Virus record (IMG/VR): IMGVR_UViG_3300009183_000080 | Location: 7,433 to 71,432 of that record | Strand: one strand, 5' to 3' | Origin: a virus | DNA: 64,000 nucleotides | In this document: piece after piece, positions 9,895 through 44,631 of the stretch | Position numbering within the stretch: position 1 is the stretch's first letter | Layout of the letters: each line of letters starts with the position of its first letter | Made by a program: the position numbers and the translations under genes | Notes under the pieces: model-generated | Databases searched by the model: none | What the model was told of the DNA's origin: nothing | Seen by the model: only the letters and a program-made list of their open reading frames with translations

Positions 9895-12800
9895 TTACAC
9901 CTCACTCAAATATATAGTCATGTCTGGTCCTTGCAAACTTCTTGAATAATCTATGTTATAAATAACAAATCTTGAAGTAGAAGATGTAACAAGATCTAAT
10001 CCATTATTATTCTTATAATCAATTGAAACAATATCACCAAGTTGAATTGTGGGGTTTGCAAAAATTTTTAATCCAATTGCTTTTTTCGGAACCATTAACT
10101 TATCTACTAACCATCCCATTAATTCTTCTGCATCTTCTGTATTTTGTATATATTCTCCCTGTATAGAAAAAGCACTTGTTCCATAATTCATTCTGCTTAA
10201 TTTAACATTATTATATTTTTCTTTTTGTATGTTTGGAGAATAAACTATTTTATCGTCTTTAAGTTCTGGGTCTGAAAAACTTGATTTCTTTTTAAAATAA
10301 TCGTCTACTGTAAGTTCATTACTGCTATCACTTGTAAATGCAATACCTTGAATTTTTAAAAAGTTTGAAGTAGTTGTGCTTACGTCTAATAAAGTATCTG
10401 TTGCATTAAATATTAAAAATTCTGCTCCGTACGCATTTGCTTCAAATCCAGATATTGTATATTCTTTTACTTTGTCTGGGGCATTTACTATTTTTGCATA
10501 TAGTGCTGGATAGGCATTGTCAAACCTTGCATTAATATATGCACACTCTCTCATTATAGTTCCAAATTCTTCAAAATGAATATCATAAATTGGAGTAGTT
10601 AAAGGGCTTAATCCACTCAAATATGTTTCTTGTAAAATTCCACTCATTGCATATTTTCTTAATGATTGATTAACGGTAACATCTTTTGCTGCAAATACTT
10701 TTGAAATTTGATTGTTTACTACAAAACCAGAATTTTGTGAATAATTGTTGGTTAAAGCATAAAAATTTTCAAACATACATTTAGATGATCCTCTAATAAA
10801 TAAAGCAGTATTTTGATATGCTGGTAGTGGAGAAGTATCATCAACTTGACCAATTAAAATATCATTTATATATAAATAAAACCTTCTTGTATTTTTATTT
10901 GCTAAATCTTCATATTCTACTGCTAAATCATATACAGTTGTAAACTGTTCACCATATTTTCTTGATATACCAGCAAAATCTCCAGAGTCATATTGAATTT
11001 GTTCATTGAATGCATTAAACAATAATGTTGGAATAGCATTTGCTTGTCCAGTACCTTCTTCAATTTTATAAAATATAATATTTGAAGTGTTTGTTGTTGC
11101 GCCATCTAATGCAATAACTTCAAAGTAGTATCCATTGTTTGTTTCTGGGTTAAGCAGAATTGCAATTCCTCCAGAGTTTCCAGATATAACAACACTTTGT
11201 TCTGGAGATGTTGAACCATTTGAATAGTATGTCATTCCAGAAAGTGGAACTGCAGTAGAAATTATATTACTACTTTCTGTTTTTATTTGCTCATCTCTGT
11301 CACCAATAATACGCATTTTAGTTCCAAAATGTTTAAATACTGCTTTGTCTAGTTTTTTATAAACATAAGATATATGATTAATTGGTTTTGGATCTGTTGC
11401 AATAAAATCTTTACCTTTAAAAACAAGTGCTGATGATTGAACTAATCCTTTATTTTTAACAGGATCTATAGATTGCAAAGATGCTCTTTCTGTTTCTGTA
11501 AAAGGATGTTCTGATAAAAATCTTTTAATTACGCCATTAACAAATGCTGAGTTAGCAATGGTATTTGAAATACCCGCAGGGCCAGCACCAGTGGTTCCGT
11601 CAAATGTAGTGTCTCCAAATAAATATTGAGATTCCATTAAACAACCTCTACGATTAGTAAGACTATACCAGTGTTCATCTAAGGCTGCTTTATGGGAAAC
11701 AATGGTTGTTCCAAATTGAGCCCTTCCATGTTTTGCAACAGAGCCATTTACCATTCTAATAACTCCATTAACTGTTTCATAATATGGCTCTGAGTATATT
11801 CTAACTTTTCCCGTTGGATATAGTTTGCCATTATATTTTAATTTATTTAAATAATTTTTGTATTCAGAATCACTACTTATCCATACGTTTGGGTTTTCAA
11901 GTCCTTCAACAAAATATTGAACTGCATCATATCTAATAACTTCACCATTAGCATAAAAATATCCTTGATTTCTTGAAATTAAATAAATGCTTTCTCCAAA
12001 ATCAATAACATTATTTTTAAGTTGATTATCCATTACGGTTGGCGCTTCATTTATAAGTGTTGAGTTTAGCCCAATTGCTGATAATGTAAATCCACTTGAT
12101 TTTTGATTTGATCCTTTTAATTCTTCATAATTAGATATCTCCCATAAAAGTGATGGTTTATATACCCAAAATTTATTTGATGCACTTGATATGGTTTCTT
12201 CGCCTATTGCTGAAAATGTTTTGTCAATGTATCGTGATGTATAATTGATTTTTCCATCATTATAAATTTTTTTATCTTGAGAAGCAATTGAAATAATATT
12301 AGGAAGTTTTTTACCAGTAATTAATTTATTTTTAATTATGCTCACAGAATTTTCTGAAAGAGATGGACTATTTCCACCAAGTTCATCTTCCCAATATTCA
12401 GTGCTATAAAGTCCGCCATCAAAAAACTCTTCTGCAGTATTGCTATATACCCCTGCATCTTCTGAGGTTAAATCTATCTCTACTAAAACATCATTTGTTT
12501 TTGATCCAATTAATGTTGTATCTATTGACCTCTTTGATGCTTCTGGTATTAAATAATTTTTGCTCATTGCAATAAAATTATTATATTCATCAAAGAACAT
12601 TGCTGTTTGTGTTGATATGGCTAATTCATTTAATACTTCTGCAACGTTTGTATCTGGTCCTACAAAAAAATATGGAATAATTGGATCTGATTCTCCTTCA
12701 ATTCTTTTATAAATATAATTAGTAAATCCAATAGCGTCTAATAAAATTGATATTGCATAACTTACTGATATGTTTGTAAGAAAAAGTTTTGGAGCAAGCA

Positions 12801-14535
12801 TTGATTCAAAATAAAAATAAAAATCTCTTAACTCTAAAGATATAGTTCCACCAGTTACATCTGCCTGTGGAAAACCTTCTGAATACAAAGTTTTAATTGG
12901 AACACTGTAATCATTTCCAGAAACGTTTAAGAGTGTTTCATAGAAATTAAACTTAATATTTTTTGTAACATACTTAGAAATAATACTATTTGTATTATTT
13001 TCATTGAATGCTTGATCATCGTCAAATATTGAAATGTTTCCAGTAGAGGCTAGAAGTTGTCCAACGGGCAAAGAAGTTGATCCAAGATCAGACAATTGTT
13101 TAGTTACTTTATAGTTAATAGTTTTGTTTGATATGTTTGCAATTAGTCTTGGTGACATCTCAATTAAATCAAAGGTTGAATCAAATTTATTCATGGCATC
13201 TACAACAATTCTAACTCCTCTAACATATTGAAACTCACGATATGTAGTAACGTTATCTTTAATAAAATATTCTGGAGATGTAAAATCAGTAACAAAATTT
13301 GTTTCTTTAGTTAAGTCTGAATTTGTTAACTTCCAACCATATTCAGGAACAAAGGTTTGATAAACTTTTGTTGTATTGTTCCAAATATGATAAACTCCTT
13401 TGTCTGTTGCTGATTCTACAACTAAATAAGCATAGCCATCGATTGATTTATTTGGCAATAATGTTGTAGAGGATATTTTTTCAACATGTATAAATCTATT
13501 TTTATGTTCAATTGGAAGAATTAATCCATATGACAATTCCACATATCCATCTTCGTTAATTATTGGAGTTGCATCATCTCTTAAGGAGTTGGCATTAAAA
13601 GTTTTTGCTGATACCCATGAATTTCCAGACAAGTATTCTATTCTCCAGTTAATAGGAACCTGTTTGTTAGAGTTTCCATAAAGTGGATCTGCAATAGGAG
13701 TTGTAGAAGTATTAAAAGGGCCTAAATTTTTACTTCCAACATGTGTTTGCATCTTAACTATAAGTCTATTAGCGGGAACATTTTCTTTATACACTACAAA
13801 TGGTGCAGCATCTTCAATTGGATATTGACTGTTTGTAGAATTTTTTGATATACCTCGTTCTGGTGAATTAATGTCTGTGCCATTTTCTTTTCTAAATGAT
13901 GTCCAATATTTAAATTGATCATCTCTTGCTCCCATATAATATCTTGGTCTTTGTGTAAAAGAACTAATTCCGTTAACAGAATCTTTAACTTTTTTATATT
14001 TTATTTTTTTTATGGGTAAATTATTTGAATCATTTTTTACAATGCCATTGCTATCTTTTTCATAAACAAACTTACCTTCTGCATCTGTTTCATATTCATA
14101 AATAAAATTTCCAGCAGCATCTGTTTCATAAAATTGTTGATTGTCAATTGAATTAGTATTAAAATTATGAAAGTGTCTTCCTGGAATGTAAAAGGCTTTG
14201 TTAATTCCAGATCTTGGACGAAAAGGTTTAATACAATCTTCTAATGAATAAAACATATTATATTGTTCTTCAATCTTAGAAAATAACGAAGGAAGATCAT
14301 CATTATCATAGCCATTGTCAACTACAATATCTGAATCTGTTGCTCCCGTGTAAGCATTGTTAGTGTCGGTTGCATCAAATGAAAGCGGTATTTTTTTTGT
14401 ATCTCTATTTCTATAATTTCCTAATTTAAAAATATTATCTGGAACATTCATATTCCACTCTGCTAATATTGTTGCACGAGTTTCAATTGTTGAAGAAGTT
14501 TCTATATGGTTTTTTAATGTTGTATTTACAAACAT
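9895..14535 (-). CDS. Large minor tail protein (hub / central fibre)
   Basis: 1546 aa, second gene after the tape measure; C-terminal NPTIQLGDIVSI motif typical of tail hub proteins. Confidence 0.75.
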   Translation of the reverse strand: MFVNTTLKNHIETSSTIETRATILAEWNMNVPDNIFKLGNYRNRDTKKIPLSFDATDTNNAYTGATDSDIVVDNGYDNDDLPSLFSKIEEQYNMFYSLEDCIKPFRPRSGINKAFYIPGRHFHNFNTNSIDNQQFYETDAAGNFIYEYETDAEGKFVYEKDSNGIVKNDSNNLPIKKIKYKKVKDSVNGISSFTQRPRYYMGARDDQFKYWTSFRKENGTDINSPERGISKNSTNSQYPIEDAAPFVVYKENVPANRLIVKMQTHVGSKNLGPFNTSTTPIADPLYGNSNKQVPINWRIEYLSGNSWVSAKTFNANSLRDDATPIINEDGYVELSYGLILPIEHKNRFIHVEKISSTTLLPNKSIDGYAYLVVESATDKGVYHIWNNTTKVYQTFVPEYGWKLTNSDLTKETNFVTDFTSPEYFIKDNVTTYREFQYVRGVRIVVDAMNKFDSTFDLIEMSPRLIANISNKTINYKVTKQLSDLGSTSLPVGQLLASTGNISIFDDDQAFNENNTNSIISKYVTKNIKFNFYETLLNVSGNDYSVPIKTLYSEGFPQADVTGGTISLELRDFYFYFESMLAPKLFLTNISVSYAISILLDAIGFTNYIYKRIEGESDPIIPYFFVGPDTNVAEVLNELAISTQTAMFFDEYNNFIAMSKNYLIPEASKRSIDTTLIGSKTNDVLVEIDLTSEDAGVYSNTAEEFFDGGLYSTEYWEDELGGNSPSLSENSVSIIKNKLITGKKLPNIISIASQDKKIYNDGKINYTSRYIDKTFSAIGEETISSASNKFWVYKPSLLWEISNYEELKGSNQKSSGFTLSAIGLNSTLINEAPTVMDNQLKNNVIDFGESIYLISRNQGYFYANGEVIRYDAVQYFVEGLENPNVWISSDSEYKNYLNKLKYNGKLYPTGKVRIYSEPYYETVNGVIRMVNGSVAKHGRAQFGTTIVSHKAALDEHWYSLTNRRGCLMESQYLFGDTTFDGTTGAGPAGISNTIANSAFVNGVIKRFLSEHPFTETERASLQSIDPVKNKGLVQSSALVFKGKDFIATDPKPINHISYVYKKLDKAVFKHFGTKMRIIGDRDEQIKTESSNIISTAVPLSGMTYYSNGSTSPEQSVVISGNSGGIAILLNPETNNGYYFEVIALDGATTNTSNIIFYKIEEGTGQANAIPTLLFNAFNEQIQYDSGDFAGISRKYGEQFTTVYDLAVEYEDLANKNTRRFYLYINDILIGQVDDTSPLPAYQNTALFIRGSSKCMFENFYALTNNYSQNSGFVVNNQISKVFAAKDVTVNQSLRKYAMSGILQETYLSGLSPLTTPIYDIHFEEFGTIMRECAYINARFDNAYPALYAKIVNAPDKVKEYTISGFEANAYGAEFLIFNATDTLLDVSTTTSNFLKIQGIAFTSDSSNELTVDDYFKKKSSFSDPELKDDKIVYSPNIQKEKYNNVKLSRMNYGTSAFSIQGEYIQNTEDAEELMGWLVDKLMVPKKAIGLKIFANPTIQLGDIVSIDYKNNNGLDLVTSSTSRFVIYNIDYSRSLQGPDMTIYLSEV

Positions 14536-15171
14536 TTAAACCTCTTCCAGCGATACCGTAATATCCCAAAGATCATGATTGCTTTGTCCACGCTTAGATA
14601 CCGTATATGAAAAATCAGAAACATAAACCTGAACAATTTGGTTATATTGTTCTAAATGTGTATATGGTGCTGAGGTTCCATCTTGTGCATAGTTATTAAA
14701 CTTGTCATAGGCTAGGAACATCCAAAATGGTCCCGTGTGGTTTTCATACCAGTCTAGCATTTCTACTCCGCCTGCACCCCCGTCAGCGGTATATTCAGGG
14801 GATTGTGTGGTTGCTCCAGTAGTGGCTCCAGTAGTGGCCCAGTTTGGTATAGAAAAATAAGATCTTGATGGAAGGTTTTGCCAACTTACACTTAAAGTAT
14901 TTTTATCAGCAATATGAAAAGACCTCATGTTGCCGTTTACCATTCTTTGTCTTTGTTCAATTCTTTGTGAATTAAATTGAAGAGGACTACGGTTGTGGTC
15001 TGATAGAATTAAAAATTGATTTAGATTAGTAGTTTCTGTAGTGTATGCTCCTATTTCAAATCCTTCTGGCACGTACATTCCGCTTTGTAAAGTTCCTGGA
15101 TTTTCTGACCAAAGAATTCCTTGTGGTCTGGAATAGCGTTTTCTTCCACTCATATATGCTGCGGTAGCCAC
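14536..15171 (-). CDS. Distal tail (Dit-like) protein
   Basis: Immediately follows the tape measure; RMVNGNMRSF and WDITVSLEEV motifs. Confidence 0.65.
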   Translation of the reverse strand: MATAAYMSGRKRYSRPQGILWSENPGTLQSGMYVPEGFEIGAYTTETTNLNQFLILSDHNRSPLQFNSQRIEQRQRMVNGNMRSFHIADKNTLSVSWQNLPSRSYFSIPNWATTGATTGATTQSPEYTADGGAGGVEMLDWYENHTGPFWMFLAYDKFNNYAQDGTSAPYTHLEQYNQIVQVYVSDFSYTVSKRGQSNHDLWDITVSLEEV

Positions 15172-18100
15172 TATAAACCTCTAATTCTTTGATTATCAAT
15201 TTGTCTAATTTGATTAATAACAGTACGTGCAATATCATTTGGATTTGCATTACTGTTAGAAACATTAACACTAAGATTATAATTATACAGGGTTTTGGAA
15301 TTATTTGTGCTAACTGCATTATTTGAAACATTAGCATTACTATATTTTGGGGTTGAAGAACTTGGTGTTTCAAATGTTGGGGAGTTTATAGCACTAAGTA
15401 AAGGACCAAACTTTTGAGTTGCTTTTCTATTTACTACAAATTCTCCAGGAGTAAGCATTGCTGGAACAGTATCAGTTCCAACAGCCATGCCACCAGATGA
15501 CATATATCTAGGAACTATTCCGCCCATTGCATAACCTGTTATGTTCATTTCTTTTCCATATTGTTTTACAGCATCATCAACTCGTTTTTTATCAAATCCA
15601 TATTTTAAAAGATCTAACAATGTTTGTTTTGCAATTTTTACTACATTATCTGGAATTGCAGTAGAAGATTTTAATATATCATAACTCTTACTTTCTTTAT
15701 TAAGAAATCTTAATTCATTTTCTAACCAAACATTGCCCCCAAGTCTTGAGCCTGGAGGGGTTTTCTTTCCTGCTTCATCAACAAAACTAGGCTTAATTCT
15801 TGGGTGAATATCAACAACTTTGCCTAACCCTTTTGCTTCTAATGTATCAACAATTTTTTGGCTATAGTCAGTTCTACTAGAAACTATACCTGTATTTAAT
15901 CCAGTTTTGGTAGTTCCACTCATTCTTGCTGCATCCATTAAAGCCAAAGCCATTAAATCAAAACTTTCCATTATGCTTCCTTTATTTCCTATAGTTTCCA
16001 ATAAAGATCCATCAAAAGGATCATGCAATATTGCAGCAACACCTTTGATTGTTCCTTCTTCACTTTTAGGACCAGCAGAATATATTTGATGGTATAAAGA
16101 TATGTCGTCATCGGCTCCTTGATATAAATAATAATTTGGACCTGTTGTTTTATTTTTCTTTGGCTTATTTAATGGCATGCTGATTTTAGCAGCAGGAATA
16201 GATTTTTTGTCAGCCACTTTTTTTAACGTTTCTTTTAACGTCTCTGGGGTTGAGTACCTTGCTGCAATTTCGGCTCGCAAATCTTTTTCAAATTTTTGTG
16301 CTGCTTTTTCTCCTGCAGTTAATTTAGGATCAGGTAATTTCATTCCTTTAGTTGCTGCATATGCAGTTTGTTTAGGTTCAAATATTTTTTTTAATCCGCT
16401 AGAAATAGAGTTGGATTTTTTAATTACTGACTTAGGTATGCCATCCGCAACCATTGATTTGCTATCTAATTTAAAGCCCATTCCTGGCATAGTTCCCATC
16501 ATCCAGTTGGTAAAGGCATCACCATGTCTATATCCCAAATAGCCTTCTTTTATTAAGGCTTGAATTATTGGCTGGTTTGCATCTGAGTTGGCGCTTGTAA
16601 CATGAGCACCTGGCATGTTGTATTTTATTGCAATTTTTTCTATATCTTTTGGTGTAGCCAAACCTTTACTACCTAAAACTTTTAAAATTGCTGATGGGGT
16701 TAGTGCTGTTTTATATGCGTATTCTCCAAAATCTTCAAATTGATTTTTAGAAATTTTAGCATTAGCAGCAAAATAGTTTCCTGGTCCATAAGCAGCCCTT
16801 GGAGGAGTTCCTTCTCCACTAATTGCTTTTGCATGTCTTTCATAAACAGATAATGGAGAAGCAGTATATGGTGTACTTGTTCTGTGAACGCCTCTTTGAA
16901 GTTGCAGAAGTCCTCCCAGACCTCCTGGCATAGAGTCTACAATTTCTTGAGTTAAATTGGGTTTGTTTAATAATGTTAGCAAATCATCCTTTTTAGTAGC
17001 AATTTTTGAAATAAAATTGGTTGCTGGCTTTTTTACAAATTTTTCTAAAATATTTTTTGGTATATTTTTATATAAAGGATCAGAAGTGTATCTGCCTTCT
17101 AAATTATTTTGCATATATTTTTGCAATGTAGAAAATTCTTCTGGGTTTTTATTTTGTATTGTTAATTTTGGATTTAAATTTTGTGCAAGTTTACCAATAG
17201 ATTTGCTAGCCAATTCAGCCATTAGCGAATTTCTACCGTAATTATCAAAACTACCAGTCCATCGGGTTTCAGGGGTTTCTCCATATTTCCAAGAGTTTGA
17301 AAATGCTTTGGCAACATTTGACATAAAATTTGCAGGTGCAGTCAATGGTTTAGCAATAGTACTTGCAATAGTTTGCATACGAGATTTTGGGGCAAAAGGA
17401 GTGTAAGTACTAAAATCTAGTACGTCACTAGGTAAGTCACCCCAAATATCTGAGTTATTTGAATTATTTTTAATATTATCAAACATCTCTGCTGTTTTTC
17501 TTGCCTGCTCTTCTTTTCTACTTTTTGGCAAATTAATTATTTTTTTAAATGGTGCAGCAATTTTTGATTCTACTGCTTTAAATGGTTTAGCAATTGCTGA
17601 AAGTGCTGTGGAAACTCCTGGTATTAGTTTTAAATATTTTAAAGGATTTGCCATTGTTAAGCCAATACCTAAAGCATCTGATCCTCTTTCTTTTAATCCA
17701 TACCCTTCATTTTTATATAAATTTGCACCAAGAACATTGATATCAGGAACATTAAGTTTTGGTCCCATGCCAGGAATAGCATTAGCACCATCAATTGAAT
17801 TTTGCAAAACTGGTCTTATGAAAGAAGTTGCAGCCATTTGAAAACCTTCTTTAAAGAAATTTCCAATTGCTCCTGCTGTTGTTCCTGCTGCACCTACTAC
17901 CTTTTTTGCAATTGATGATCGTTCAAATTTACCATCAGGTTGAAGATTTTTAACTCCTAAGTATCCACCTTCTGCAAGTTTTTGGGCATTTAAAGATTCA
18001 AACAAACCTACTCCATACTTATCAACACTTCTTGCATTTACAACATATTCTCCATCTGATAGTAATGCGGGTATTGAATCAGAAGTTCCTGTTCCTGGCC

Positions 18101-21100
18101 CGTTGATTTTTCCACCAGATCTAAATCCAGGAATTCCAACACCACGAAGAAAATCTTTTCTTCTTTGTTCTTGGTCTATTAATTTTTGTGCTGCTACTAA
18201 TTCTGCATTTTCTTTATACAGTCTATTAACTTCTTCTGCATCTTTTCTAAGTTGTTCAGATCGTTGTTCTGCGGTTTTTCCTGGAGCAAAACCTTGACTT
18301 GCTTTTTGGTTTGCTATTTTTTGTTCTCCGTCTGATGCTGCTATCTTAGCATTTAGTGCTGCTGTTGCTTCAGCATTTGCTCGTGCTACTGAGTTAGGGA
18401 TAATGTTTCCAGATGCAAATCCTGCTGCTGCAATTCTTGCTTCATCCATTGTTTTTACAAACAATTTAAATTCTTCATGAAGTTCTTTAACAGATGCTTT
18501 AGTTCCTACTGCAGACCCATCCAAAGTCTCAAAAACATTGTCTAAGAATTTTGCTGCACCTTCTGGACCTAATGCTTCAACTGCAAGATTGATTGTTGAA
18601 ATTGCTGCGTCAATTTGATCCTTTGTTAATTTTGTTGTTTGTTCAGTAAGTTTATCCAATTCAATCTTTTTAACTCTAACTTCATTTTCCATATCTATAA
18701 ATCTTTGATCTATAGTTCTGTTCATTTTTTCAAAATCTTCTCTTGTATATGCTTTGCCATCACTGCCAGTTGCAGTAACACCCTTAATTGCATTTTCTTT
18801 TGCTTTTTGTAATGCTTCCATTCTGCTTCTTGCACTTTGTGCAATTTTTGCATTTCGATATTCTTGCATTGCACTGCTTGCTGCAGACATATCTCCACTT
18901 GCAAATGCCTCAGCAATTGACATTTTTCTTGAGGTTAGTTCATTTTCTTTTTCTCTTAAACTATTTATTTCTTCAAGAGCAGTAATTTGTTTATCATAGG
19001 ATTCATTAATGTCATATTCTCTTCTTGAAATTTGTTCTAAGGCATAATCATTATCACCCTTTTGTATGTTTAGTTTAGTTTTTTCTTTAATGTATTCATT
19101 TTCAATCATTTTTTCTTGTATATCAATATAAGCCTTTGCCATTTGAAGTTGTTTGCTTTGAGATTCTGCTGCATCCATTTGTGCTGTTTTTGTAAATCTT
19201 TCATTAATAAAATTTGCTTTTGTTAATTCTTTTTGTTTTAATTTTATTGTATCTAAATCTTCTTGAGAAATTCTTGATTGTGTAATTGCTAAAGCAATAG
19301 CATCAGTGCTAACTACATTGTTGGCTTCTTGTTCACTAAAACCTTGTAGTCTTAATGTATTAATAGCCTTTGTTCTGCGTTCCATTTCTACCAATGCGCT
19401 TACTGTGTTATTATAATTTTGTCCAACTTCTGAAGAAGCCAAACCTGCTTCAAATTTTTGTTGTTTTTTTGTGTCTATACCCGTTACTTTTCCTTTTTTT
19501 GTTTTTATTCCCATTTGGTCCATAAGTTCTTTATCTTGCAGTTGTTCAGGGGTTAGATTTTCTACAAAACGTAAATAGTCTTCACTTATTTTGCCTTCAC
19601 CAAGAGTTCTTAATTTGTTAATAGTTCCGTCAAAATTAATTGGAATTTTTCCTGTTGCAGTCATTACCTTCATTAACTCTTGAAAACCACCAGTTGCTTT
19701 TATTGTTGAGTCATGAAATAGTTTAAGTTTTTTAAGCATGTCATCAAGTAATGAGTCTCTACCTTTTTGTTCGTCTTGTTTTTTTGCTGCTGCTACTTGC
19801 TTTGCCATTGCTTGTTCTAATTCTGTAACTTGTTTTGCTGGGGCTGCTGCCATCGCTTCAGCAGCACGGGCTTTACCTTGAGCCGTACTTAATTGTTTTT
19901 CAATTGCTTGTGGAGACATCCCAGTAGAAGCCAAATAACCACCCATTGCAGCGGGGTCTTCTATGTATGAGCGATAAGCGGATAAAAAAGTTATTGTAAA
20001 TGTTTTTTGTTGATCTGCTGGTAATTTATCAAAATAATCTACTTGAGTACTTAATGCGTTTATTTCATCAACCGACATTCCGTCTATTTTTGCTAAAATG
20101 CCAATTTTTAATTTACCTTTTGTTTTTTGAATTTGTTTAAAAATTTCTTTTAATGCAGCAGTTCCATTTGGATTTTTTTCTATATAATTAGATACAATTT
20201 GCATATCCAATACTTCTCCTGTTTTACCAAGAGTTTTGAAAAAATCTATATTCTCTTGATTGTCACCTGATGAACCGCTAGTCATTTTTAAAACTAATGT
20301 TTTTTGAACTTCTTTTAATGGATTTCCAGAATTATCAATAAACATTGATGCAACTTGTGATGCCTCATTTCCTTGTGTTGGAGAAGAAACTAAAACTTTT
20401 AGTAATGCTTCTGTTCCTTTTTGATCACCTTTAAATAAGTTTGTTAAATTTATAATTTCTGTAGGGCTTACATTTTTTCCTTTAAGTTGTAAATTTATTG
20501 CATATTGTTGTTTTCTTGATATTCCTTCAAAACCTTTAATTGCCTCAACTGCCCCTCCAGCAATATCTTGTTCTGCTGTACCTTTGTATGCTGCTACTGC
20601 TCCTTTTTCAGAAGTTCTTAAAAGTGATGTGGCTGTTTTGGTAGAAGTTGTTTCTACATCATCAAAAAATTTTACAACCTGTTCATTAATTTGTCTATCT
20701 TTTTCAACTAAATCAAGTCTTTGTTTTTCACGCTTGTCTCTTAGTTCATCTGCTTTACCAAATTGTTTCTTTATTTCTAATTGTTCAATTAATTTTTGAG
20801 TTTGAGCATCAAAAGAATTTAAAAGTTCTTGACTTTGTTCTATTGCAATTGATTGAAGTCCAACAGCAGTTCCTGTTGCTTTTGCAATAGAAGCACCATT
20901 AAATAAACCAAATTTAGCAAGTTTAGCATTTTTTACGTTTGCAAATGAGTTTGCAATATTATTTTGTGCAGTATCAAGAAGTTTAACTCTAACTCCAATT
21001 GGATCTTCAAGAGCATTTTCTCCTTTAGGACCCATTAAACTTATTAACTTAGCATTTACACTAATTCCAAAAGAATAGTCATTAAGTTGTTTGCCTAATT

Positions 21101-24100
21101 CTGCAGCAATACTTTGTGCTTGTGATGCTGTTAAAGTACCACTTGCAATTGATGTTGCTAGTTGTGAAGCAATACCCTCTTGAGTGTCAACCTTGTTAGT
21201 TGCTTTCATACTACTTGCAATATCTTTAATTTTTTGCTGTCCCGTTTCACTTTGAACATATGCTTGTCCAAAAGTTGTTTTACCAGGTTTAATTTGAAAT
21301 TTGGAAAAACTATCTGCCCTTCTTCTATTCATTAATTCGGTGCCAGTAACCTTATTAGTAAAAATTGCTAACTCATTTAAAGATTTTGAACTAGCACCCA
21401 TTGCTTGAGTTGTTTCCATTGTTTTTGCTGCTAATGCTTCATTTTTCTTTTTAAGATACATATACCCTGCTCCTACAAGTACTAGGGCTGCTGCTAACGC
21501 TCCTGCTTGAGTTTTCATTAATGGTGCAGCCATGCTCAATCCCATTGCAATCATTGAGCCTTCCATGTTTCCAGTCATTCCTAGTGCCATTGATGCGCCC
21601 ATACCAGCAGCACCAATTCCTGGAGCAAATCTTGCTATTTTTGTAGGGTTTTTTACTGATCTAGAAGCAAACTGTCCAGCCTTTGAAGCCTTTAGTCTTT
21701 CCATTGCTGCTTTACGTCTTCCTGGAGTTTGTTTAGTACCGTCAAAATCTTCTGCATTATCGGAGCCATATGACCCAAGACTAGAAATGTCTATAACTTC
21801 TTTTCCAGTAATTGGATCTATTATAGTATTAACATCGCCTTCACCACGTAAAACAAATCCGCCTTTATTTAATCCTTGTAAAAATCCTTTATTTTCTTGT
21901 GTTGATTTTTTATTTACAACAAAAGATCCTTGATTGAGCATCATTGGAACTGTATCTTTATTGCCTGTTCCTGGAACTATTGTTCCATTAGAACGTCTTT
22001 CAATTTTTCCACCGGCATTTATATATTGTAATGCTGGACCAATTTGTTGTGCTAGTGCTCTATCTGCAATAAATTCTCCTGGAGTTAATAATGCTGGTAC
22101 CGTTTCTGGTTCTCCGTAACCTGGTGTTCCATTTTTTCTTCTTCTTTCTTTGACAAGAAAACCTCTTTGTTTTAAAACTCCAGTTAGCACACTTTTAACA
22201 AATGCATCTTCGGATCCTGGTTTAGATTGAGCCACGTTTATTAAAGTTTTAAATTCTTTCCGTTGTCTGGTAGTGGCATCAATCGATTCACGAAGCGGTT
22301 TATTTATTTTAGGATGTGGTGCTGCTTGTGATGATTCTGGCATCTTGCCATCACTTTTATTTCTTGGACCTACTCCTACATCTGTAAGTGGTGCTAATCC
22401 AGAACCATCTGGATTTAATGTTCTACTCCACATAGCATCAACTTTAGGCAGAAAACTTCTTGAAACTCCTGCAGTAGTTGTTTGGCCTCTTGATGATGTC
22501 ATAAAATTATCAAACATTTCGTTGTATACTGGTCCGCCTATTGGTTGTTTTTCAGAAATGGCTGCTGCAAACGCTACTCGTTGCCCCATACTAGTAGACC
22601 ACGCTAATTTAGCCCTAGCACCAGTTGCTGTTCCGACAATTTGACGAATATCTGCTGATAATTGTTCTTTTGCAACCACAGCCATTCGGTATGCTTGTAA
22701 TGCCTTAACTCTTTCAGTTGTTCCTGGAGTTGCATTTAGATATCGTTGTCTTGTTGTTTCTTCATGATTTTCAAGTATGCCTTCTGTTCTTATAGCGTCT
22801 TCGTGGGTAAGTGGATATGGCTCTGGAAGATCAAGAAATGCCTTGCCTGCTGTTCTTGCGCTGTTATTGCTTTGAGTTAAATTATTATATCCTTGATCTC
22901 CAACCATTGTATATCCAGCACTTTTTCTCAAACCAATAAGGCTATCTCTTGCTGCTCCCATATTGCCTCGTGTGTGTACTGGGGGGTTATTTCCATGTGA
23001 ATCTTCCCAATGTAACAAGGCAGTTCCAGCAACACCACCTGGTCTAATGTTTAACAGGTCTTGTTCTTCCGCCAGCAATCTAAGCCTAGTTCTTTCTTTA
23101 TTTGCTGCAATTCTTGCTGCCTCCGCAGCCTTTTCTTCTTCAGTGCCTTTAAACCTTCTTACAAACCCACCTTTATTAAATGTAGCAGCAGCATGAATTG
23201 GTTGGAATTTTGACCAATCAACGTTTGCTCCAGCCTTAAGTCTATCAATCATATTTTGATAAACAATTGTTTCTGTTGGATCTAAATCCCAAGATTTAAT
23301 AAGTTTTTCTAGTCTTGGTATTGTTTCACTAATTTCTTTTTTTATTGCAGCATCATATTCTGTTGGAGACATTTTTGCAGCAAGACTAGATGTTTCTTTT
23401 GCAAAAAATTGTTTTGCTCCGCCACCTTTTACACCACCAAGATTAACCATTGCTTGTTCTTCCATGCTTGGCATTACTTTGGCAAACTCTCTAAATCCAG
23501 AGGCTCTATCATGTACCCCAGCAGTTCCAACATCTGCAACAATATTTCCAGAAACGTTTGCCCTTTGTAAGTCTTTGTCTCCTCTTAGTGTTGACGCAAC
23601 TAACTGTTTAACCATGTCCTTTTGTGAGAATTGTCCATCCATTGCTGCTATTCTAGGATCATAAGGGGACTCAATAACAATAAATTTTCTTTCCCCTGTT
23701 GGGTCTGTTGGATCCATCATTGTTCTAATAGTTTGTTTTGGAGATACCATTTTGTGTGCGGCTCTTACAATTTCTGTAGCACGAATTTCTGCTAGTGCAG
23801 TACCTTCATCCATAGTTGGTTTTACTACAACTAAATCTCCATTAGGTTTTCTGTATACCCCGCCAACTCCACGAGCAGGAAAACTAAATCCAGTGAATGG
23901 TTGATGTAATGTTCCAAAATCGGTTGGTGGCACGTCTCCATATTTTCCAGCCTTTACATTATCCGATATCTTGTTTAGCGTTTGTCTAGACGTTGTTGCT
24001 TTTGCTGCTGAGGTTGGCATACCAATAAATCTTGCTGGTGGCTTTGGTTGTGCTGCTGCTACCTGAGCAGCAACTACTGCTTTAGCATGTTCTATTGATC

Positions 24101-26345
24101 CTACACGGAATTTTGGTAATGTTGGATCATATCTTGGTCCTCCCTTTACTTCCCCTGCCCAAGGATTTTGTATATTTTTAAACTTTCCAGTTCCTACACC
24201 ACGTAAAACAAAACCACCTTTGTTTAACGCTGGTAATAATCCCCGATTTTCTTGTGTTGCTTTTTTATTTACAACAAATTCTCCAGGAGTTAACATTGCT
24301 GGAACTGTGTCAGTGTTTCCACTTCCTGGAACAAGTCCTCCCTTATTAAATTTCTTTGGTGTAAAACCAGGTCTCATCATTCCTGGATTTACTCTAGCAA
24401 AATTGTTTGCTGCAACTACTCCTCTTTGATATGCTGCTGTTAATTGATTTGCAGCCTGTGTCTCTAAAAGAAAACTTTGTCTTAGTCTGGAATGTGCTTG
24501 ATCTAATGAGGCTGCAACTGTTGTTGCTTCAATTTGTGCTGAAGTCATATATTGAGTTTGTTCGCCAAGAACTTTAGACTGGCCCCCAAGATTCATAAAT
24601 CCTTTTCTTAAGGTAATAAATAATTTAATAATATTTGCTGCACCATTTGCAATTAAACCAAATGTCATCAATAATGCAGGACCAATAAGACCAACAATAC
24701 CAATAAATCTTACAATTCCGGCCTTTACTCCATCACTAAGCCCATTAAATTTTTCAAGTATTTTGCCAATAAACTCTACTATTGGAGTAACAGCCTTTAA
24801 AAATTGTTCTCCAATTGGTGCTAATGTTACTTTAAGATCTTCCATTGTTTTTTTAAATTTTGTACCAGTTGCATTTTCTACTTTAGCAAGTTCTCGTTCA
24901 GATAAAATAGCAAGTTCTTCAATTGAGTTTGATGCTAAATTAAGAGTTCTGGATGCTTGAGTTCCATCTTTTGTAATATTTTGAAATAATGTTGAAAGTC
25001 TTGAAAACTGAAACTTGCCAAACAATTGTTCAATTGCTCTTGCTCTGTTTAGTGGATCAAGTGTGTCTAGTGCTTGTGCAAATTGAATAACGGTTGATTT
25101 AATATCTCCCTTGTTTGATTCAACTATGCCCTTAATATTAACTCCAAAATCTGCTAAAAATGCAGATGCTTTTTTGCTTGGATTAATTAATGATGCAAGG
25201 CCAGACTTTAATGCGTTGGCACCTTCTGAAGCATTAATGCCACCCTCTTTCATTGCAGTCATAAAGAATGCAAGGTCTTCAACATCTCCACCAAGTTGTC
25301 TAATAACTGGGGCAGCCTTTGGAATTGCAATAGTTAAATCTTCAATATTTAAAACTGTTTGGTTTTCTACAGCGTTAAGAAAATCAATCTTTCCTCTTAA
25401 TTTATCTGCTTCTATTCCAAAAGCATTTGTTAATGATATTGTTGTTTCTAATGCCTGCTCTTGTTCAACTCCTCCAAGAACTGCAAGTCTTGTTGCTTGT
25501 GCAACCTGTGCCATTAAGTCGGCACCCATTTTTCCTGTTGCTGCTGCGTCTGCTGCAATTTGCATAGTTTTTTCAACAGCAACTCCATATTTAGTAAACT
25601 GTTTTGCTAATAACTCAACTTCTTTTAATGCTCTAGAAGTTTCAGCGGAAGTTGTAAACATTTCACCATAAACACGTTTAAATCTAATGGCTTGTTTTTC
25701 TAATGCCATAAATGTTTTGCTTGAAGAAACTGCCAACATACTAAGTGGAATTGTAAAACCAACCATAAGTTGACGACCAGCCCACTGTGTATTTTTACCA
25801 AAATTTAAAAGATTAGTTGATCCTTGTTTTAATAACTGATTTAATAATTGTTGTTTTTGTGCAGCCAAAGCAGTTTTAGTTGCAAGATTATTCATGTCTA
25901 ATGTAAGAGGTCTTACGGCTATAGCCTTAATTGCACCATTTGCATCTCTACCCATTTTAATATATTGGGTTTGCATTGTTTTAACACGTTCTTCTGCTAC
26001 CTTGCCAATTGTGTTAAACTCTGTTTTGAAAAGTTTTCCAAATGTTTTTGTTGCACCACCAGCATACCTAAAATATTCACGAGTTGAAAATTTGTTTTTT
26101 TCTAATGAGTCAGTGAAACTATCAGTAGAACTTTTTATTGTTGTAATGCTTGCTGCAAATTTTCCAGTTGCATTTACACTATTTATAAGATTGCTTGTTA
26201 AGTTGGCTTGAGCCCTTGCTGCTGCTTTATTGCTTGTTGCAATTGCGTTATTAAACTGAGAAAGTTGTGCTTGAAGTGATTTTAGTTGTGCAAGTGCTTG
26301 AGAGGCGTCAAGATTAACCTCAATATTGGATTGAACATCAGCCAC
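15171..26345 (-). CDS. Tape measure protein with embedded cargo domains
   Basis: 3724 aa; N-terminal TP901-type tape measure region (GGINASEGANALKS, AIEQLFGK), long helical Ala/Lys/Gln-rich stretches; follows the tail chaperones. Confidence 0.93.
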   Translation of the reverse strand: MADVQSNIEVNLDASQALAQLKSLQAQLSQFNNAIATSNKAAARAQANLTSNLINSVNATGKFAASITTIKSSTDSFTDSLEKNKFSTREYFRYAGGATKTFGKLFKTEFNTIGKVAEERVKTMQTQYIKMGRDANGAIKAIAVRPLTLDMNNLATKTALAAQKQQLLNQLLKQGSTNLLNFGKNTQWAGRQLMVGFTIPLSMLAVSSSKTFMALEKQAIRFKRVYGEMFTTSAETSRALKEVELLAKQFTKYGVAVEKTMQIAADAAATGKMGADLMAQVAQATRLAVLGGVEQEQALETTISLTNAFGIEADKLRGKIDFLNAVENQTVLNIEDLTIAIPKAAPVIRQLGGDVEDLAFFMTAMKEGGINASEGANALKSGLASLINPSKKASAFLADFGVNIKGIVESNKGDIKSTVIQFAQALDTLDPLNRARAIEQLFGKFQFSRLSTLFQNITKDGTQASRTLNLASNSIEELAILSERELAKVENATGTKFKKTMEDLKVTLAPIGEQFLKAVTPIVEFIGKILEKFNGLSDGVKAGIVRFIGIVGLIGPALLMTFGLIANGAANIIKLFITLRKGFMNLGGQSKVLGEQTQYMTSAQIEATTVAASLDQAHSRLRQSFLLETQAANQLTAAYQRGVVAANNFARVNPGMMRPGFTPKKFNKGGLVPGSGNTDTVPAMLTPGEFVVNKKATQENRGLLPALNKGGFVLRGVGTGKFKNIQNPWAGEVKGGPRYDPTLPKFRVGSIEHAKAVVAAQVAAAQPKPPARFIGMPTSAAKATTSRQTLNKISDNVKAGKYGDVPPTDFGTLHQPFTGFSFPARGVGGVYRKPNGDLVVVKPTMDEGTALAEIRATEIVRAAHKMVSPKQTIRTMMDPTDPTGERKFIVIESPYDPRIAAMDGQFSQKDMVKQLVASTLRGDKDLQRANVSGNIVADVGTAGVHDRASGFREFAKVMPSMEEQAMVNLGGVKGGGAKQFFAKETSSLAAKMSPTEYDAAIKKEISETIPRLEKLIKSWDLDPTETIVYQNMIDRLKAGANVDWSKFQPIHAAATFNKGGFVRRFKGTEEEKAAEAARIAANKERTRLRLLAEEQDLLNIRPGGVAGTALLHWEDSHGNNPPVHTRGNMGAARDSLIGLRKSAGYTMVGDQGYNNLTQSNNSARTAGKAFLDLPEPYPLTHEDAIRTEGILENHEETTRQRYLNATPGTTERVKALQAYRMAVVAKEQLSADIRQIVGTATGARAKLAWSTSMGQRVAFAAAISEKQPIGGPVYNEMFDNFMTSSRGQTTTAGVSRSFLPKVDAMWSRTLNPDGSGLAPLTDVGVGPRNKSDGKMPESSQAAPHPKINKPLRESIDATTRQRKEFKTLINVAQSKPGSEDAFVKSVLTGVLKQRGFLVKERRRKNGTPGYGEPETVPALLTPGEFIADRALAQQIGPALQYINAGGKIERRSNGTIVPGTGNKDTVPMMLNQGSFVVNKKSTQENKGFLQGLNKGGFVLRGEGDVNTIIDPITGKEVIDISSLGSYGSDNAEDFDGTKQTPGRRKAAMERLKASKAGQFASRSVKNPTKIARFAPGIGAAGMGASMALGMTGNMEGSMIAMGLSMAAPLMKTQAGALAAALVLVGAGYMYLKKKNEALAAKTMETTQAMGASSKSLNELAIFTNKVTGTELMNRRRADSFSKFQIKPGKTTFGQAYVQSETGQQKIKDIASSMKATNKVDTQEGIASQLATSIASGTLTASQAQSIAAELGKQLNDYSFGISVNAKLISLMGPKGENALEDPIGVRVKLLDTAQNNIANSFANVKNAKLAKFGLFNGASIAKATGTAVGLQSIAIEQSQELLNSFDAQTQKLIEQLEIKKQFGKADELRDKREKQRLDLVEKDRQINEQVVKFFDDVETTSTKTATSLLRTSEKGAVAAYKGTAEQDIAGGAVEAIKGFEGISRKQQYAINLQLKGKNVSPTEIINLTNLFKGDQKGTEALLKVLVSSPTQGNEASQVASMFIDNSGNPLKEVQKTLVLKMTSGSSGDNQENIDFFKTLGKTGEVLDMQIVSNYIEKNPNGTAALKEIFKQIQKTKGKLKIGILAKIDGMSVDEINALSTQVDYFDKLPADQQKTFTITFLSAYRSYIEDPAAMGGYLASTGMSPQAIEKQLSTAQGKARAAEAMAAAPAKQVTELEQAMAKQVAAAKKQDEQKGRDSLLDDMLKKLKLFHDSTIKATGGFQELMKVMTATGKIPINFDGTINKLRTLGEGKISEDYLRFVENLTPEQLQDKELMDQMGIKTKKGKVTGIDTKKQQKFEAGLASSEVGQNYNNTVSALVEMERRTKAINTLRLQGFSEQEANNVVSTDAIALAITQSRISQEDLDTIKLKQKELTKANFINERFTKTAQMDAAESQSKQLQMAKAYIDIQEKMIENEYIKEKTKLNIQKGDNDYALEQISRREYDINESYDKQITALEEINSLREKENELTSRKMSIAEAFASGDMSAASSAMQEYRNAKIAQSARSRMEALQKAKENAIKGVTATGSDGKAYTREDFEKMNRTIDQRFIDMENEVRVKKIELDKLTEQTTKLTKDQIDAAISTINLAVEALGPEGAAKFLDNVFETLDGSAVGTKASVKELHEEFKLFVKTMDEARIAAAGFASGNIIPNSVARANAEATAALNAKIAASDGEQKIANQKASQGFAPGKTAEQRSEQLRKDAEEVNRLYKENAELVAAQKLIDQEQRRKDFLRGVGIPGFRSGGKINGPGTGTSDSIPALLSDGEYVVNARSVDKYGVGLFESLNAQKLAEGGYLGVKNLQPDGKFERSSIAKKVVGAAGTTAGAIGNFFKEGFQMAATSFIRPVLQNSIDGANAIPGMGPKLNVPDINVLGANLYKNEGYGLKERGSDALGIGLTMANPLKYLKLIPGVSTALSAIAKPFKAVESKIAAPFKKIINLPKSRKEEQARKTAEMFDNIKNNSNNSDIWGDLPSDVLDFSTYTPFAPKSRMQTIASTIAKPLTAPANFMSNVAKAFSNSWKYGETPETRWTGSFDNYGRNSLMAELASKSIGKLAQNLNPKLTIQNKNPEEFSTLQKYMQNNLEGRYTSDPLYKNIPKNILEKFVKKPATNFISKIATKKDDLLTLLNKPNLTQEIVDSMPGGLGGLLQLQRGVHRTSTPYTASPLSVYERHAKAISGEGTPPRAAYGPGNYFAANAKISKNQFEDFGEYAYKTALTPSAILKVLGSKGLATPKDIEKIAIKYNMPGAHVTSANSDANQPIIQALIKEGYLGYRHGDAFTNWMMGTMPGMGFKLDSKSMVADGIPKSVIKKSNSISSGLKKIFEPKQTAYAATKGMKLPDPKLTAGEKAAQKFEKDLRAEIAARYSTPETLKETLKKVADKKSIPAAKISMPLNKPKKNKTTGPNYYLYQGADDDISLYHQIYSAGPKSEEGTIKGVAAILHDPFDGSLLETIGNKGSIMESFDLMALALMDAARMSGTTKTGLNTGIVSSRTDYSQKIVDTLEAKGLGKVVDIHPRIKPSFVDEAGKKTPPGSRLGGNVWLENELRFLNKESKSYDILKSSTAIPDNVVKIAKQTLLDLLKYGFDKKRVDDAVKQYGKEMNITGYAMGGIVPRYMSSGGMAVGTDTVPAMLTPGEFVVNRKATQKFGPLLSAINSPTFETPSSSTPKYSNANVSNNAVSTNNSKTLYNYNLSVNVSNSNANPNDIARTVINQIRQIDNQRIRGL

Positions 26346-26364: not shown

Positions 26365-26682
26365 TTACATATTTAGCAAAGAACCATCTGGAAGACTATT
26401 ACCAGACGCTGCCTCAACAATTTTATAAACTGTAGGCAAATCTAAATTCTCTTCAAGGGCTTTTAGGTCTTGTGACAATTCAGGCTTATACTGTTGCATT
26501 GCAATTGCTACACATTCCATTAGGATATTCATTGATTTTTCATTGTCTTCTGATACTGCTGCAATACCCTCAAACTTTTTCATAAAGGGACGGAGTAGTG
26601 AGATCTTTAACGGTCTAACTGAAATCTTTGTTCCGTCAATAAGAACAACTACATTCTCATCTGCTTTTGCTGCTGTTGCCAT
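26365..26682 (-). CDS. Tail assembly chaperone (short, G-like)
   Basis: Directly upstream of the tape measure; paralogous to the N-terminal half of 26728..27435. Confidence 0.75.
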   Translation of the reverse strand: MATAAKADENVVVLIDGTKISVRPLKISLLRPFMKKFEGIAAVSEDNEKSMNILMECVAIAMQQYKPELSQDLKALEENLDLPTVYKIVEAASGNSLPDGSLLNM

Positions 26683-26727
26683 TTCTTTCTCCTTTGGTTA
26701 AGTTAATTAATTATATCATGAATACGT

Positions 26728-27435
26728 TTATTTTTTAGTTAAATCTTCGTAATCCAAGCCCATTCCAATACCAAACCCTGCTCTTGCTGCATTAGGACCT
26801 TGTAACGACAACACATCATTACCATCACTTGTTTGCCCACCACTAAAGACTCTTGCTTTCATGTCTTCCCATTCTTTTTGTCCCTTGCCATTTTGATTAT
26901 TTTTATCTAAATCTACACCCTGAATTGCTGCTAAAAATTTTTTTTCTTCATAATCTAAATCTCTTTTTGAAGACAAAGTTTGCATTAATTCTGGAATAGA
27001 AAGAGATGTTTCTAACTCTTCATAGTTTTTCCATATGCCCAAAGTAAAAACTTCTGCTTCTAGTTTTGCTAAATCTAAATCAAACCAACCTTGTTCTTTC
27101 TCTTTGTCTTTTGATATTTCTTTAATTGGCGTTTCTTCTTCTTTTGTTGTTTGTGGTTTTATCTTAATTCCGGCTGCAATTTCAACAATATCATATAGGG
27201 TATTAAGATCTACATGTTCTTCTAAGTCTAAAAATAAACCAGGATTGTATTGTTTCATGCAAACCCTAGAACATTCTAATAAAATTTCAATAGATTCATC
27301 ATCATTTTTTGAACCTTCCATGCCAATAAATATATCCATAAACTCTCTCATGTATTTAATCTTTAAAGGAGAGCACTCAAGAACTTGATTGTTTAGTAAT
27401 ACAATTTGAGATGTTTTAAATACTTTTGTAGCCAT
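26728..27435 (-). CDS. Tail assembly chaperone (long, GT-like)
   Basis: Between major tail and tape measure genes; G-like N-terminus plus a C-terminal extension (WKNYEELETSLSIPEL). Confidence 0.72.
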   Translation of the reverse strand: MATKVFKTSQIVLLNNQVLECSPLKIKYMREFMDIFIGMEGSKNDDESIEILLECSRVCMKQYNPGLFLDLEEHVDLNTLYDIVEIAAGIKIKPQTTKEEETPIKEISKDKEKEQGWFDLDLAKLEAEVFTLGIWKNYEELETSLSIPELMQTLSSKRDLDYEEKKFLAAIQGVDLDKNNQNGKGQKEWEDMKARVFSGGQTSDGNDVLSLQGPNAARAGFGIGMGLDYEDLTKK

Positions 27436-44600: not shown

Positions 44601-44631
44601 TTTTACTCCTCTTTTCTATTATATCAAACTA

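Follow-up and report, generated by a model that had tools for sequence, protein, structure and literature searches.

The virus record IMGVR_UViG_3300009183_000080 of IMG/VR is a single contig of 71,432 bases. We analysed 64,000 nucleotides of it (positions 7,433 to 71,432 of the record, hereafter the window; G+C about 34%), which hold one giant gene with five copies of a short protein module and two slots of cargo between these copies. The gene occupies 15171..26345 on the minus strand, as do all features described below, and forms a single uninterrupted open reading frame (ORF) with a GTG start, 3,724 codons plus stop, encoding 3,724 residues. Its N-terminal part matches Pfam PF10145 (PhageMin_Tail; residues 247-443, E 9.4e-24, 84.8 bits against a cut-off of 33.2) and TIGR01760 (tape_meas_TP901; residues 200-554, E 4.9e-26, 91.6 bits against a cut-off of 28.8), and several tape measure PHROGs match over residues 1-650. 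Judging from these matches and from the gene context, this is the gene for the tail tape measure protein (TMP), of the TP901 type, of a large uncultured siphophage, as the initial annotation had proposed. A misassembly or gene fusion artefact was considered and rejected: the frame stays open over all 3,724 codons, at least 593 stretches in IMG/VR encode relatives of the N-terminal domain (N-domain), and 65 of the 80 loci that we kept hold complete ORFs of more than 2,000 residues with the same layout.

The repeated module

The module measures about 50 residues. It begins with an xxxGG element ([FY]xxGG), followed by G-x-G, the core D[TS][VI]PAxL[TS]xGE[FY]VV and about 15 further residues of short helix-like character, and it closes with LNxGG. 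A regular expression for the motif finds exactly five copies in the TMP, all within the ranges that the initial annotation had given for them, and 0 matches in 2,000 shuffles of the protein. A hidden Markov model (HMM) built from the five copies scores those same copies at 73-91 bits. Together, the regular expression, the HMM and the shuffles indicate that the five copies are not a product of chance.

The first copy follows directly on the N-domain (residues 1-662, 24360..26345), the conserved head part of the TMP with a hydrophobic stretch at residues 539-577, which the 65 other distinct family members share at 57-93% identity. With module limits taken from HMM hits and cores from the regular expression, module 1 (FNKGG...DTVPAMLTPGEFVVN...LNKGGF) spans residues 663-713 (24207..24359), its core DTVPAMLTPGEFVVN lying at residues 679-693 (24267-24311). 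Modules 2 and 3 stand in tandem at residues 1398-1447 (22005..22154) and 1449-1498 (21852..22001), with the cores ETVPALLTPGEFIAD (residues 1414-1428, 22062-22106) and DTVPMMLNQGSFVVN (residues 1464-1478, 21912-21956). Module 4 belongs to a 'GPGTGTSDSIPA' subtype and covers residues 2740-2791 (17973..18128), with the core DSIPALLSDGEYVVN at residues 2756-2770 (18036-18080). Module 5, the ancestral terminal module, covers residues 3611-3659 (15369..15515), and its core at residues 3625-3639 (15429-15473) again reads DTVPAMLTPGEFVVN. It is followed by a C-terminal tail, T (residues 3660-3724, 15174..15368), which closes 55 of 66 family members in the same way, at 45-90% identity. By its position, T would correspond to the tip-bound C-terminal end of other TMPs.

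The F/YxxGG element had been described as usually lying next to the motif, and indeed each copy has at least one adjacent xxxGG. Upstream we find FNKGG (copy 1), FRSGG (copy 4) and YAMGG plus MSSGG (copy 5, the latter read by eye), and downstream LNKGG (copy 1), INAGG (copy 2), LNKGG (copy 3) and LAEGG (copy 4). A lone FNKGGFV joint marks the end of the first cargo domain (residues 1056-1062, 23160..23180; the FNKGG itself at residues 1056-1060, 23166-23180, where it had been noted before), and at this place the module is complete in three relatives (P0122, P0146 and P0141). Some 50 residues upstream of their terminal module, two other relatives (L017 and L012) repeat a short unit of the type xGGMVPKYMAxGG in series, for which the window has YAMGGIVPRYMSSGG; the basic-aromatic-xxGG unit can thus itself be iterated. 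No Pfam-A family covers the module, and PF09718 stops 30-40 residues upstream of it in both lambda gpH and a further TMP, P0065.

Between copies 1 and 5, all 15 residues of the core agree but only 40 of 45 nucleotides. The longest exact run of nucleotides common to any two copies is 16-18, and the copies differ at synonymous sites. Across 28 aligned copies from distant phages G29 is present in every one, and G15, D20, P23, L26 and E30 in at least 90%. Shared runs of only this length, diverged synonymous sites and kept residues together imply that conservation acts on the protein. The earlier suggestion that the motif is a recombination anchor at the level of DNA is weakened by the same two nucleotide observations. 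Short homologies may assist recombination, yet they do not explain the module.

Two cargo slots with enzyme-like domains

Slot 1 (residues 714-1397) lies between modules 1 and 2 and holds two blocks, B1 and B2. For B1 (residues 743-1057, 23175..24119), an AlphaFold2 model of residues 712-1062, made from 16 family sequences, gives an alpha/beta domain with a mean predicted local distance difference test (pLDDT) score of 76.2, the first 70 residues being disordered. Foldseek returned three matches in the PDB at E<=1e-3, with probabilities up to 0.98, and among the matches listed all are kinases or kinase-containing proteins (haspin, VRK1, PI3K-gamma, CtkA and PI4KII-alpha). In the alignment of B1, K131, E142, D212, D214, N219, D227 and G229 are invariant in 16/16 sequences at 42-58% identity, within the blocks VxVKP, AE, RGDKDL...N and D-x-G. 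We read these residues, by inspection and not by superposition, as the beta-3 lysine, the helix-C glutamate, the D-x-D-x-x-x-x-N catalytic loop and the metal-binding D-x-G. As modelled, B1 is a protein-kinase-fold domain with the bilobal kinase fold. A free-standing gene for this kinase was looked for and found unsupported: 10 of the 11 homologs of 130-615 residues lie on contigs of 1.3-6.6 kb and are probably gene fragments. B2 (residues 1062-1397, 22155..23162) is the most variable part of the slot; it has no assigned fold, and no Pfam or NCBIfam family matches it.

Slot 2 lies between modules 4 and 5 and is made of three blocks. D1 (residues 2792-3113, 17007..17972) matches no family in Pfam or NCBIfam, and D3 (residues 3322-3610, 15516..16382) has no assigned fold. 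Between them lies D2 (residues 3114-3321, 16383..17006), which is ADP-ribosyltransferase-like (ART-PolyVal/PARP-like) according to its AlphaFold2 model, searches of BFVD and Atlas, and a motif. The model of residues 3100-3330 is an alpha/beta domain with a mean pLDDT of 81.9, and its best Foldseek matches in BFVD are PolyVal ADP-ribosyltransferases (ART; E 5.1e-3, probability 0.98). Atlas gives a lead in the same direction, PF18760 (ART-PolyVal) in 12% of one cluster with a score of 0.86. The catalytic triad of the ART/PARP clade is of the H-Y-E type. In 33 sequences of D2 the histidine of 'VHRT' is mostly conserved and the tyrosine of 'GxGxYFA' is kept in at least 90%; the window itself has YGPGxYFA, which we take to resemble the PARP signature. 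On these grounds we regard D2 as ART-like with moderate confidence; statistically this assignment is weak, and it is less well supported than the kinase fold of B1.

D2 is also the common core of what resembles slot 2 elsewhere. A search with the whole slot (810 residues) against 1.84 billion representatives found 67 proteins at E<=1e-3, and 56 of the 66 that were scanned contain D2: between two modules in 16, with a module only upstream in seven and only downstream in six. Twenty-six of the 56 are proteins of 150-590 residues without a module, some of which may be fragments. D3 resembles the last cargo of three relatives (P0147, P0134 and P0138) at 29-33% identity. An acetyltransferase assignment of D3, made by eye, was dropped, as Atlas placed it at rank 24, in 13% of one cluster with a score of 0.86.

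Several results weigh against both fold assignments. The Foldseek TM-scores of B1 against the PDB are low, about 0.19-0.33 in the top rows, and those of D2 are low in both the PDB and BFVD (these D2 searches and the top rows of B1 together range over 0.12-0.37). B1 has no kinase match in Pfam or NCBIfam, and its profile finds no kinase domain among PDB sequences. D2 has 0 Foldseek matches in the PDB at E<=1e-3; the best has E 0.32, and PARP14, diphtheria toxin, cholix toxin and exotoxin A come at E 0.3-3. The D2 domain of the window matches no Pfam family, PF18760 and PF00644 included, and PARP was found in one of 33 members at E 0.066. Moreover, the third catalytic position of D2 varies, an acidic residue before 'FTNW' being common but not universal in the 33 sequences. 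Other searches of the cargo were equally silent: phmmer of both slots against the PDB gave nothing meaningful, Pfam at E<=10 on four segments gave sub-threshold noise only, NCBIfam gave nothing for either slot, and in three cargo-bearing relatives (P0122, L051 and L070) Pfam recognised only the TMP domain. Profile matches of B1 and D2 to designed proteins, PKC C2 domains and a ribosomal protein in the PDB were taken as chance.

All segments between motif copies had been described as globular. This agrees with the AlphaFold2 alpha/beta models for two of the three long intervals. The third, between modules 3 and 4 (residues 1499-2739, 18129..21851), was judged by composition, and here the description does not hold: its fraction of helix formers (0.51) and of glycine plus proline (0.09) is like that of the N-terminal part of the TMP, against 0.40-0.46 and 0.13-0.16 in the cargo segments. 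It has a Gly/Ala/Met-rich hydrophobic stretch, strongest at residues 1613-1632, and is collinear with relatives. From its composition and its conservation in relatives, this interval is ordinary TMP body and not cargo.

Cassette exchange and the spread of the module

Of the 80 loci kept from IMG/VR, 66 have a complete ORF, among them the 65 long ones. For comparison, we combined these 65 ORFs with the window and 16 long proteins found through slot 2, which gave 66 distinct sequences; the 16 additions were picked for slot-2 homology and are a biased sample in this respect. All 66 start with the N-domain followed by a module, and 55 end with a module followed by T, of about 65 residues. What lies in between differs. 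Of 49 IMG/VR relatives, 19 contain B1 and 0 contain D2, and the two occur together only in the window and in four of the 16 added proteins.

The closest relative (L004) illustrates an exchange of slot 1. Identity to it is 95-99% in the N-domain and 90% in module 1, falls to 40% over residues 714-742, 50-59% in B1 and 21-32% in B2, and returns to 86% in modules 2-3 and 79-82% in the body up to residue 1900. On this identity profile, slot 1 is exchanged relative to L004, with both breakpoints at modules. B1 can also be missing altogether, as in two other relatives (L027 and L031); in the window it lies between NKGGFVLR (residues 708-715) and NKGGFVRR (residues 1057-1064).

For slot 2, the closest full-length relatives run collinear with the window as far as residue 2783 or so and then jump to residues 3605-3724. 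Module 4 and residues 2792-3610 are absent from them, so that the body is followed directly by their single terminal module. In six of them (L005, L011, L017, L018, L012 and L023) this module matches module 5 at 32-37 of 45 positions and module 4 at 12-14 of 45, which identifies it as the ortholog of module 5. Module 4 is in turn only 27-38% identical to the other four modules of the window; its identity is higher to modules of Gordonia phage GAL1 and Burkholderia phage vB_SBP33 (58-60%) and of a relative, L070 (57-59%). Because relatives jump to module 5 and module 4 is divergent, we infer a single insertion of module 4 together with D1-D2-D3, in which the module leads on the N-terminal side.

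One relative counts against modules as the only borders. P0122 replaces residues 2936-3312 of the window, D2 included, by about 420 unrelated residues, and the junctions lie inside slot 2 and not at modules; over the rest of the slot it is 87% (residues 2723-2935) and 81% (residues 3313-3724) identical. The proposal of the initial annotation that the motif delimits swappable cassettes thus fits slot 1 of L004, the block of module 4 with D1-D2-D3 and the absence of B1 from L027 and L031, and fails for the swap in P0122. Overall, the alignments show a constant start of N-domain and module, with the cargo behind it gained, lost or replaced at modules.

The module itself reaches far beyond this family. 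A tblastn search of residues 726-3724 against cultured phages matched 108 records. The 40 listed matches, from phages of Gordonia, Burkholderia, Mycobacterium, Pseudomonas and others, all cover only the region of module 4 (2-3% of the query), mostly in annotated TMP genes, and among these 40 there is no cultured phage with the cargo. The module lies at about residues 819-874 of a 940-residue TMP in a lambda-like Burkholderia phage and is internal in Gordonia phage GAL1. The module profile also hits TMPs of known phages in the PDB, namely gp46 of Pseudomonas phage JBD30 (8rk3; residues 1018-1068, E 4.3e-7) and gp16 of mycobacteriophage Douge (8zdo), the latter twice and internally (residues 958-1013 and 1409-1464). 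These two proteins share the module with the window, with no kinase or ART cargo reported for them.

Searching 5.8 billion proteins with the module profile, restricted to those below 2,048 residues, gave 2,077 proteins at E<=1e-3 among 2,380 candidates, and these span three families of TMP N-domain (the PF10145, PF20155 and PF06791/PF09718 types). In the 120 best, a sample biased to high scores in which multi-copy proteins are over-represented, 74 have at least two copies. Their last module ends a median of 70 residues before the C-terminal end, and at most 150 residues before it in 90 of the 120. Of four TMPs with recognised lytic domains that were examined, all four have a module on the N-terminal side of this domain (SLT, M23/lysozyme or lysozyme), and two have modules on both sides. 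From this distribution, the module is an ancient and widespread TMP element, normally present as one copy that heads the last 120 or so residues.

Two proteins deserve separate mention. A 1,803-residue TMP of the PF20155 type (P0002) has six copies in total, four of them in tandem at residues 1262-1463 after a lysozyme-like domain. In the podophage HTVC103P of Pelagibacter, gp79 (L003, 4912-6207), a hypothetical protein encoded directly after the portal gene, has the module at about residues 364-427 of 431, and hence the module is not confined to proteins annotated as tape measures.

The gene lies among siphophage structural genes. By PHROG matches, the minus-strand order is portal, protease, major capsid, immunoglobulin-bearing major tail protein, two chaperone-like ORFs, TMP, a 211-residue ORF and a 1,546-residue minor tail protein. 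The major tail and chaperone genes thus precede the TMP gene, and those for the distal tail and hub follow it, an order shared with Streptomyces phage Birchlyn. Streptomyces phages of about 130 kb, Birchlyn among them, have portals 46% identical to that of the window, and the TMP of Birchlyn has 2,099 residues and an N-domain 28.8% identical to the one of the window over 577 residues. The chaperone-like ORFs (26365..27435) encode 235 residues (26728-27435) and 105 residues (26365-26682); both match phrog_10504, and the longer one continues at its C-terminal end with a part that matches phrog_10474. Birchlyn has its tail assembly chaperone genes at the same position. Instead of a frameshift pair, the tandem ORFs may represent the usual G/GT chaperones encoded by two genes. 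Downstream, the tail-tip genes (9895..15171) are the 211-residue ORF (14536-15171) and the minor tail protein (9895-14535), assigned through PHROG matches and synteny with Birchlyn. Further away, a 1,188-residue ORF (35669-39235) between the portal and ribonucleotide reductase genes has no PHROG match at E<=1e-3, two ORFs (43308-46716) with tail-fiber or central-fiber PHROG matches lie beyond the ribonucleotide reductase gene and apart from the main tail genes, and a 541-residue ORF (1244-2869), near primase and DnaB-like helicase genes, matches a PHROG annotated as tryptophan halogenase (E 2.7e-94).

Possible processing and delivery, and competing explanations

How such a protein might work is best approached through tape measures that are known to be processed. 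The module profile aligns with residues 732-778 of lambda gpH (hhalign probability 79%, E 1.6e-5), and the HMM match in the PDB is weak (E 0.15). This protein matures to gpH* and gpHC. According to a recent study, a peptide of about 14 kDa is cut from a glycine-rich region of gpH, with the exact site and the catalyst unknown (PMC12617516). The size of this C-terminal fragment would place the cut near residues 710-725, which is 10-25 residues upstream of the aligned module. Like the window TMP, gpH has a glycine-edged module near its C-terminal end, and module 5 with the tail (about 115 residues) is similar in size to the C-terminal fragment gpHC; unlike it, gpH has one divergent copy, no cargo and an N-terminal domain of another family (PF06791 instead of PF10145). 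Among the roles that the initial annotation had offered for the motif, a processing site would fit gpH, whereas an export signal and the injection of effectors would be more conjectural. T5 does not extend the parallel. Its pb2 is reported to be cut after R1127, which parts the channel-forming portion from a muralytic C-terminal piece (PMC10038345), and this site does not align with the module (no HMM match; hhalign probability 0.07). A reading by eye of 'FVPR|AEGG...GEHGTEVV' in T5 as the start of a module was likewise dropped, as neither HMM nor hhalign supported it.

Other giant phage proteins offer parallels for the cargo. Lytic-domain TMPs (the C-terminal piece of T5 pb2, and those with SLT, M23 or lysozyme domains) also have enzymatic inserts, whereas the cargo of the window shows no lytic signature. 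The TMP gp96 of Thermus phage P23-45 is fused to a virion RNA polymerase (PMC10770324) and resembles the protein of the window as a giant TMP carrying an enzyme meant for the host side of the envelope. In excerpts from that work it has a single N-terminal RNA polymerase, with no repeated joint module or cassette exchange described, whereas the cargo of the window is internal and near the C-terminal end, kinase- and ART-like, and variable. Polyvalent proteins are described as large proteins of the virion in which ART, kinase and further effector domains are strung together; they are presumed to be injected along with the DNA and suggested to vary by cassette-like recombination (PMC5512222). The window TMP likewise combines several unrelated domains in one large virion protein, namely two enzyme-fold domains and three unassigned blocks, and T4 Alt can be grouped with the polyvalent proteins in this likeness. 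Unlike the window TMP, polyvalent proteins are head-/MuF- or conjugation-associated, and none of their Pfam domains matches this TMP at threshold. The term 'tape measure' occurs 0 times in the main text of that paper (PMC5512222).

We propose that the gene encodes a constant TMP scaffold (N-domain, module, body, module, C-terminal tail) with two cargo slots, and that each inserted cargo block would have brought its own module at its N-terminal side, leading to the five copies of the window. Slot 1 would hold a protein-kinase-fold domain and the unassigned B2, and slot 2 would hold D1, the ART-like D2 and D3. As in other siphophages, the TMP would leave the tail ahead of the DNA with its C-terminal end first, and the cargo would thereby enter the cell envelope or the cell. 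The chain may be cut just upstream of modules, much as gpHC arises from a cut of gpH near its one module, and module-headed pieces would be released. Early in infection, the kinase and the ART could then go on to modify proteins of the host, in the manner of T4 Alt and the T7 kinase. By these analogies, finished enzymes are probably carried into the host by the tail. Folded domains of 25-35 kDa that have to fit the tail tube, and cargo on the periplasmic side that has to reach the cytoplasm, are difficulties for such a mechanism. Taken as a whole, from module-fenced slots through cutting near modules to the delivery of host-modifying enzymes, we hold the proposal to be evenly poised between right and wrong. 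A bolder version is doubtful: the module could be a portable 'cut here' element that suffices by itself, either autoproteolytic or the target of a common protease, which sets the cleavage of gpH and of most TMPs, and which phages have reused to build a polyprotein that releases changeable enzymes (kinase, ADP-ribosyltransferase, lysins) ahead of the DNA.

The main rival keeps the same architecture and leaves the chain uncut at internal modules. Here the module would serve as a structural joint or an anchor, a small hook of hairpin and helix that fits into the tail tip or tube and tolerates adjacent insertions, and the cargo would stay tethered to the TMP channel. In JBD30, the structural study gives residues 1022-1066 as predicted to form a hook of two helices and a beta-hairpin, proposed as a baseplate anchor, with cleavage at residue 1066 speculated (PMC11445458), and this hook coincides with our profile hit at residues 1018-1068. 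Tethering has a precedent in the P23-45 model, which keeps the polymerase fused to the TMP pore (PMC10770324), and according to the lambda study, only the TMPs of lambda and T5 are known to be cut (PMC12617516). However, a tail tip offers few docking sites, which makes five hooks per chain, or four in tandem as in P0002, hard to explain, and the lambda cut does fall beside the module. The JBD30 hook is itself a prediction and not a solved structure; the Douge TMP is modelled over residues 1658-1699 only, and in both Douge and JBD30 just the last 33-42 residues are modelled, leaving the modules unseen. We consider an uncut chain possible, though not probable. A TMP with five copies predicts either five module-headed fragments and a module-less N-domain, or one intact chain.

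It is unlikely that the inserts are not directed at the host at all and instead play a role in the virion, as length spacers, assembly aids or parts for envelope penetration, with kinase- and ART-like folds that are inactive. TMP length sets tail length, as is established for lambda, and any insert would lengthen the tail. Neither domain is recognised by any family model, and the variable third catalytic position among the ART homologs points the same way. Nonetheless, the putative kinase residues are invariant in 16/16 sequences in spite of their 42-58% identity, D2 homologs also occur as small proteins without a module (the 26 of 56 mentioned above, fragments possibly among them), and spacers would not need conserved folded domains. 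Moreover, ART and kinase domains are usual among the injected effectors found in polyvalent proteins of phages (PMC5512222).

We regard as still more improbable the idea that internal modules are scars of repeated C-terminal TMP fusion or short-homology recombination, that is, DNA crossover points without a protein function of their own: cassette borders do coincide with modules and copies do share exact runs of 16-18 nucleotides, but the residues kept in distant copies (G29 in all 28, five others in at least 90%), the diverged synonymous sites and the internal modules beside lytic domains in unrelated TMP families speak against it, and scars would decay, as one apparently did (FNKGGFV, residues 1056-1062), so that the other copies appear to be maintained. 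The scar-only and non-effector explanations are thus the less likely ones, and the competitor that matters for our proposal of a cut and delivered payload is the uncut chain with tethered cargo.

Parts of this picture are already known: TMPs with lytic inserts, the fusion in P23-45, and head-associated polyvalent proteins that include ART and kinase domains. In the literature on TMPs and ADP-ribosyltransferases, no ART inside a TMP is apparent from titles and the openings of abstracts. To our knowledge, a polymorphic payload of kinase and ART fenced by modules in a TMP, and the link of the module to the cut region of lambda, are not in print. The module, which Pfam has missed, could become a family for annotation. 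It is also a concrete and mutable candidate for the lambda question of where and by what gpH is cleaved, which the 2025 paper presents as open (PMC12617516). If our proposal is true, the siphophage tail would be a delivery vehicle for a polymorphic enzyme payload and not only a conduit for DNA, and the idea of the polyvalent protein would extend from phage heads to phage tails.

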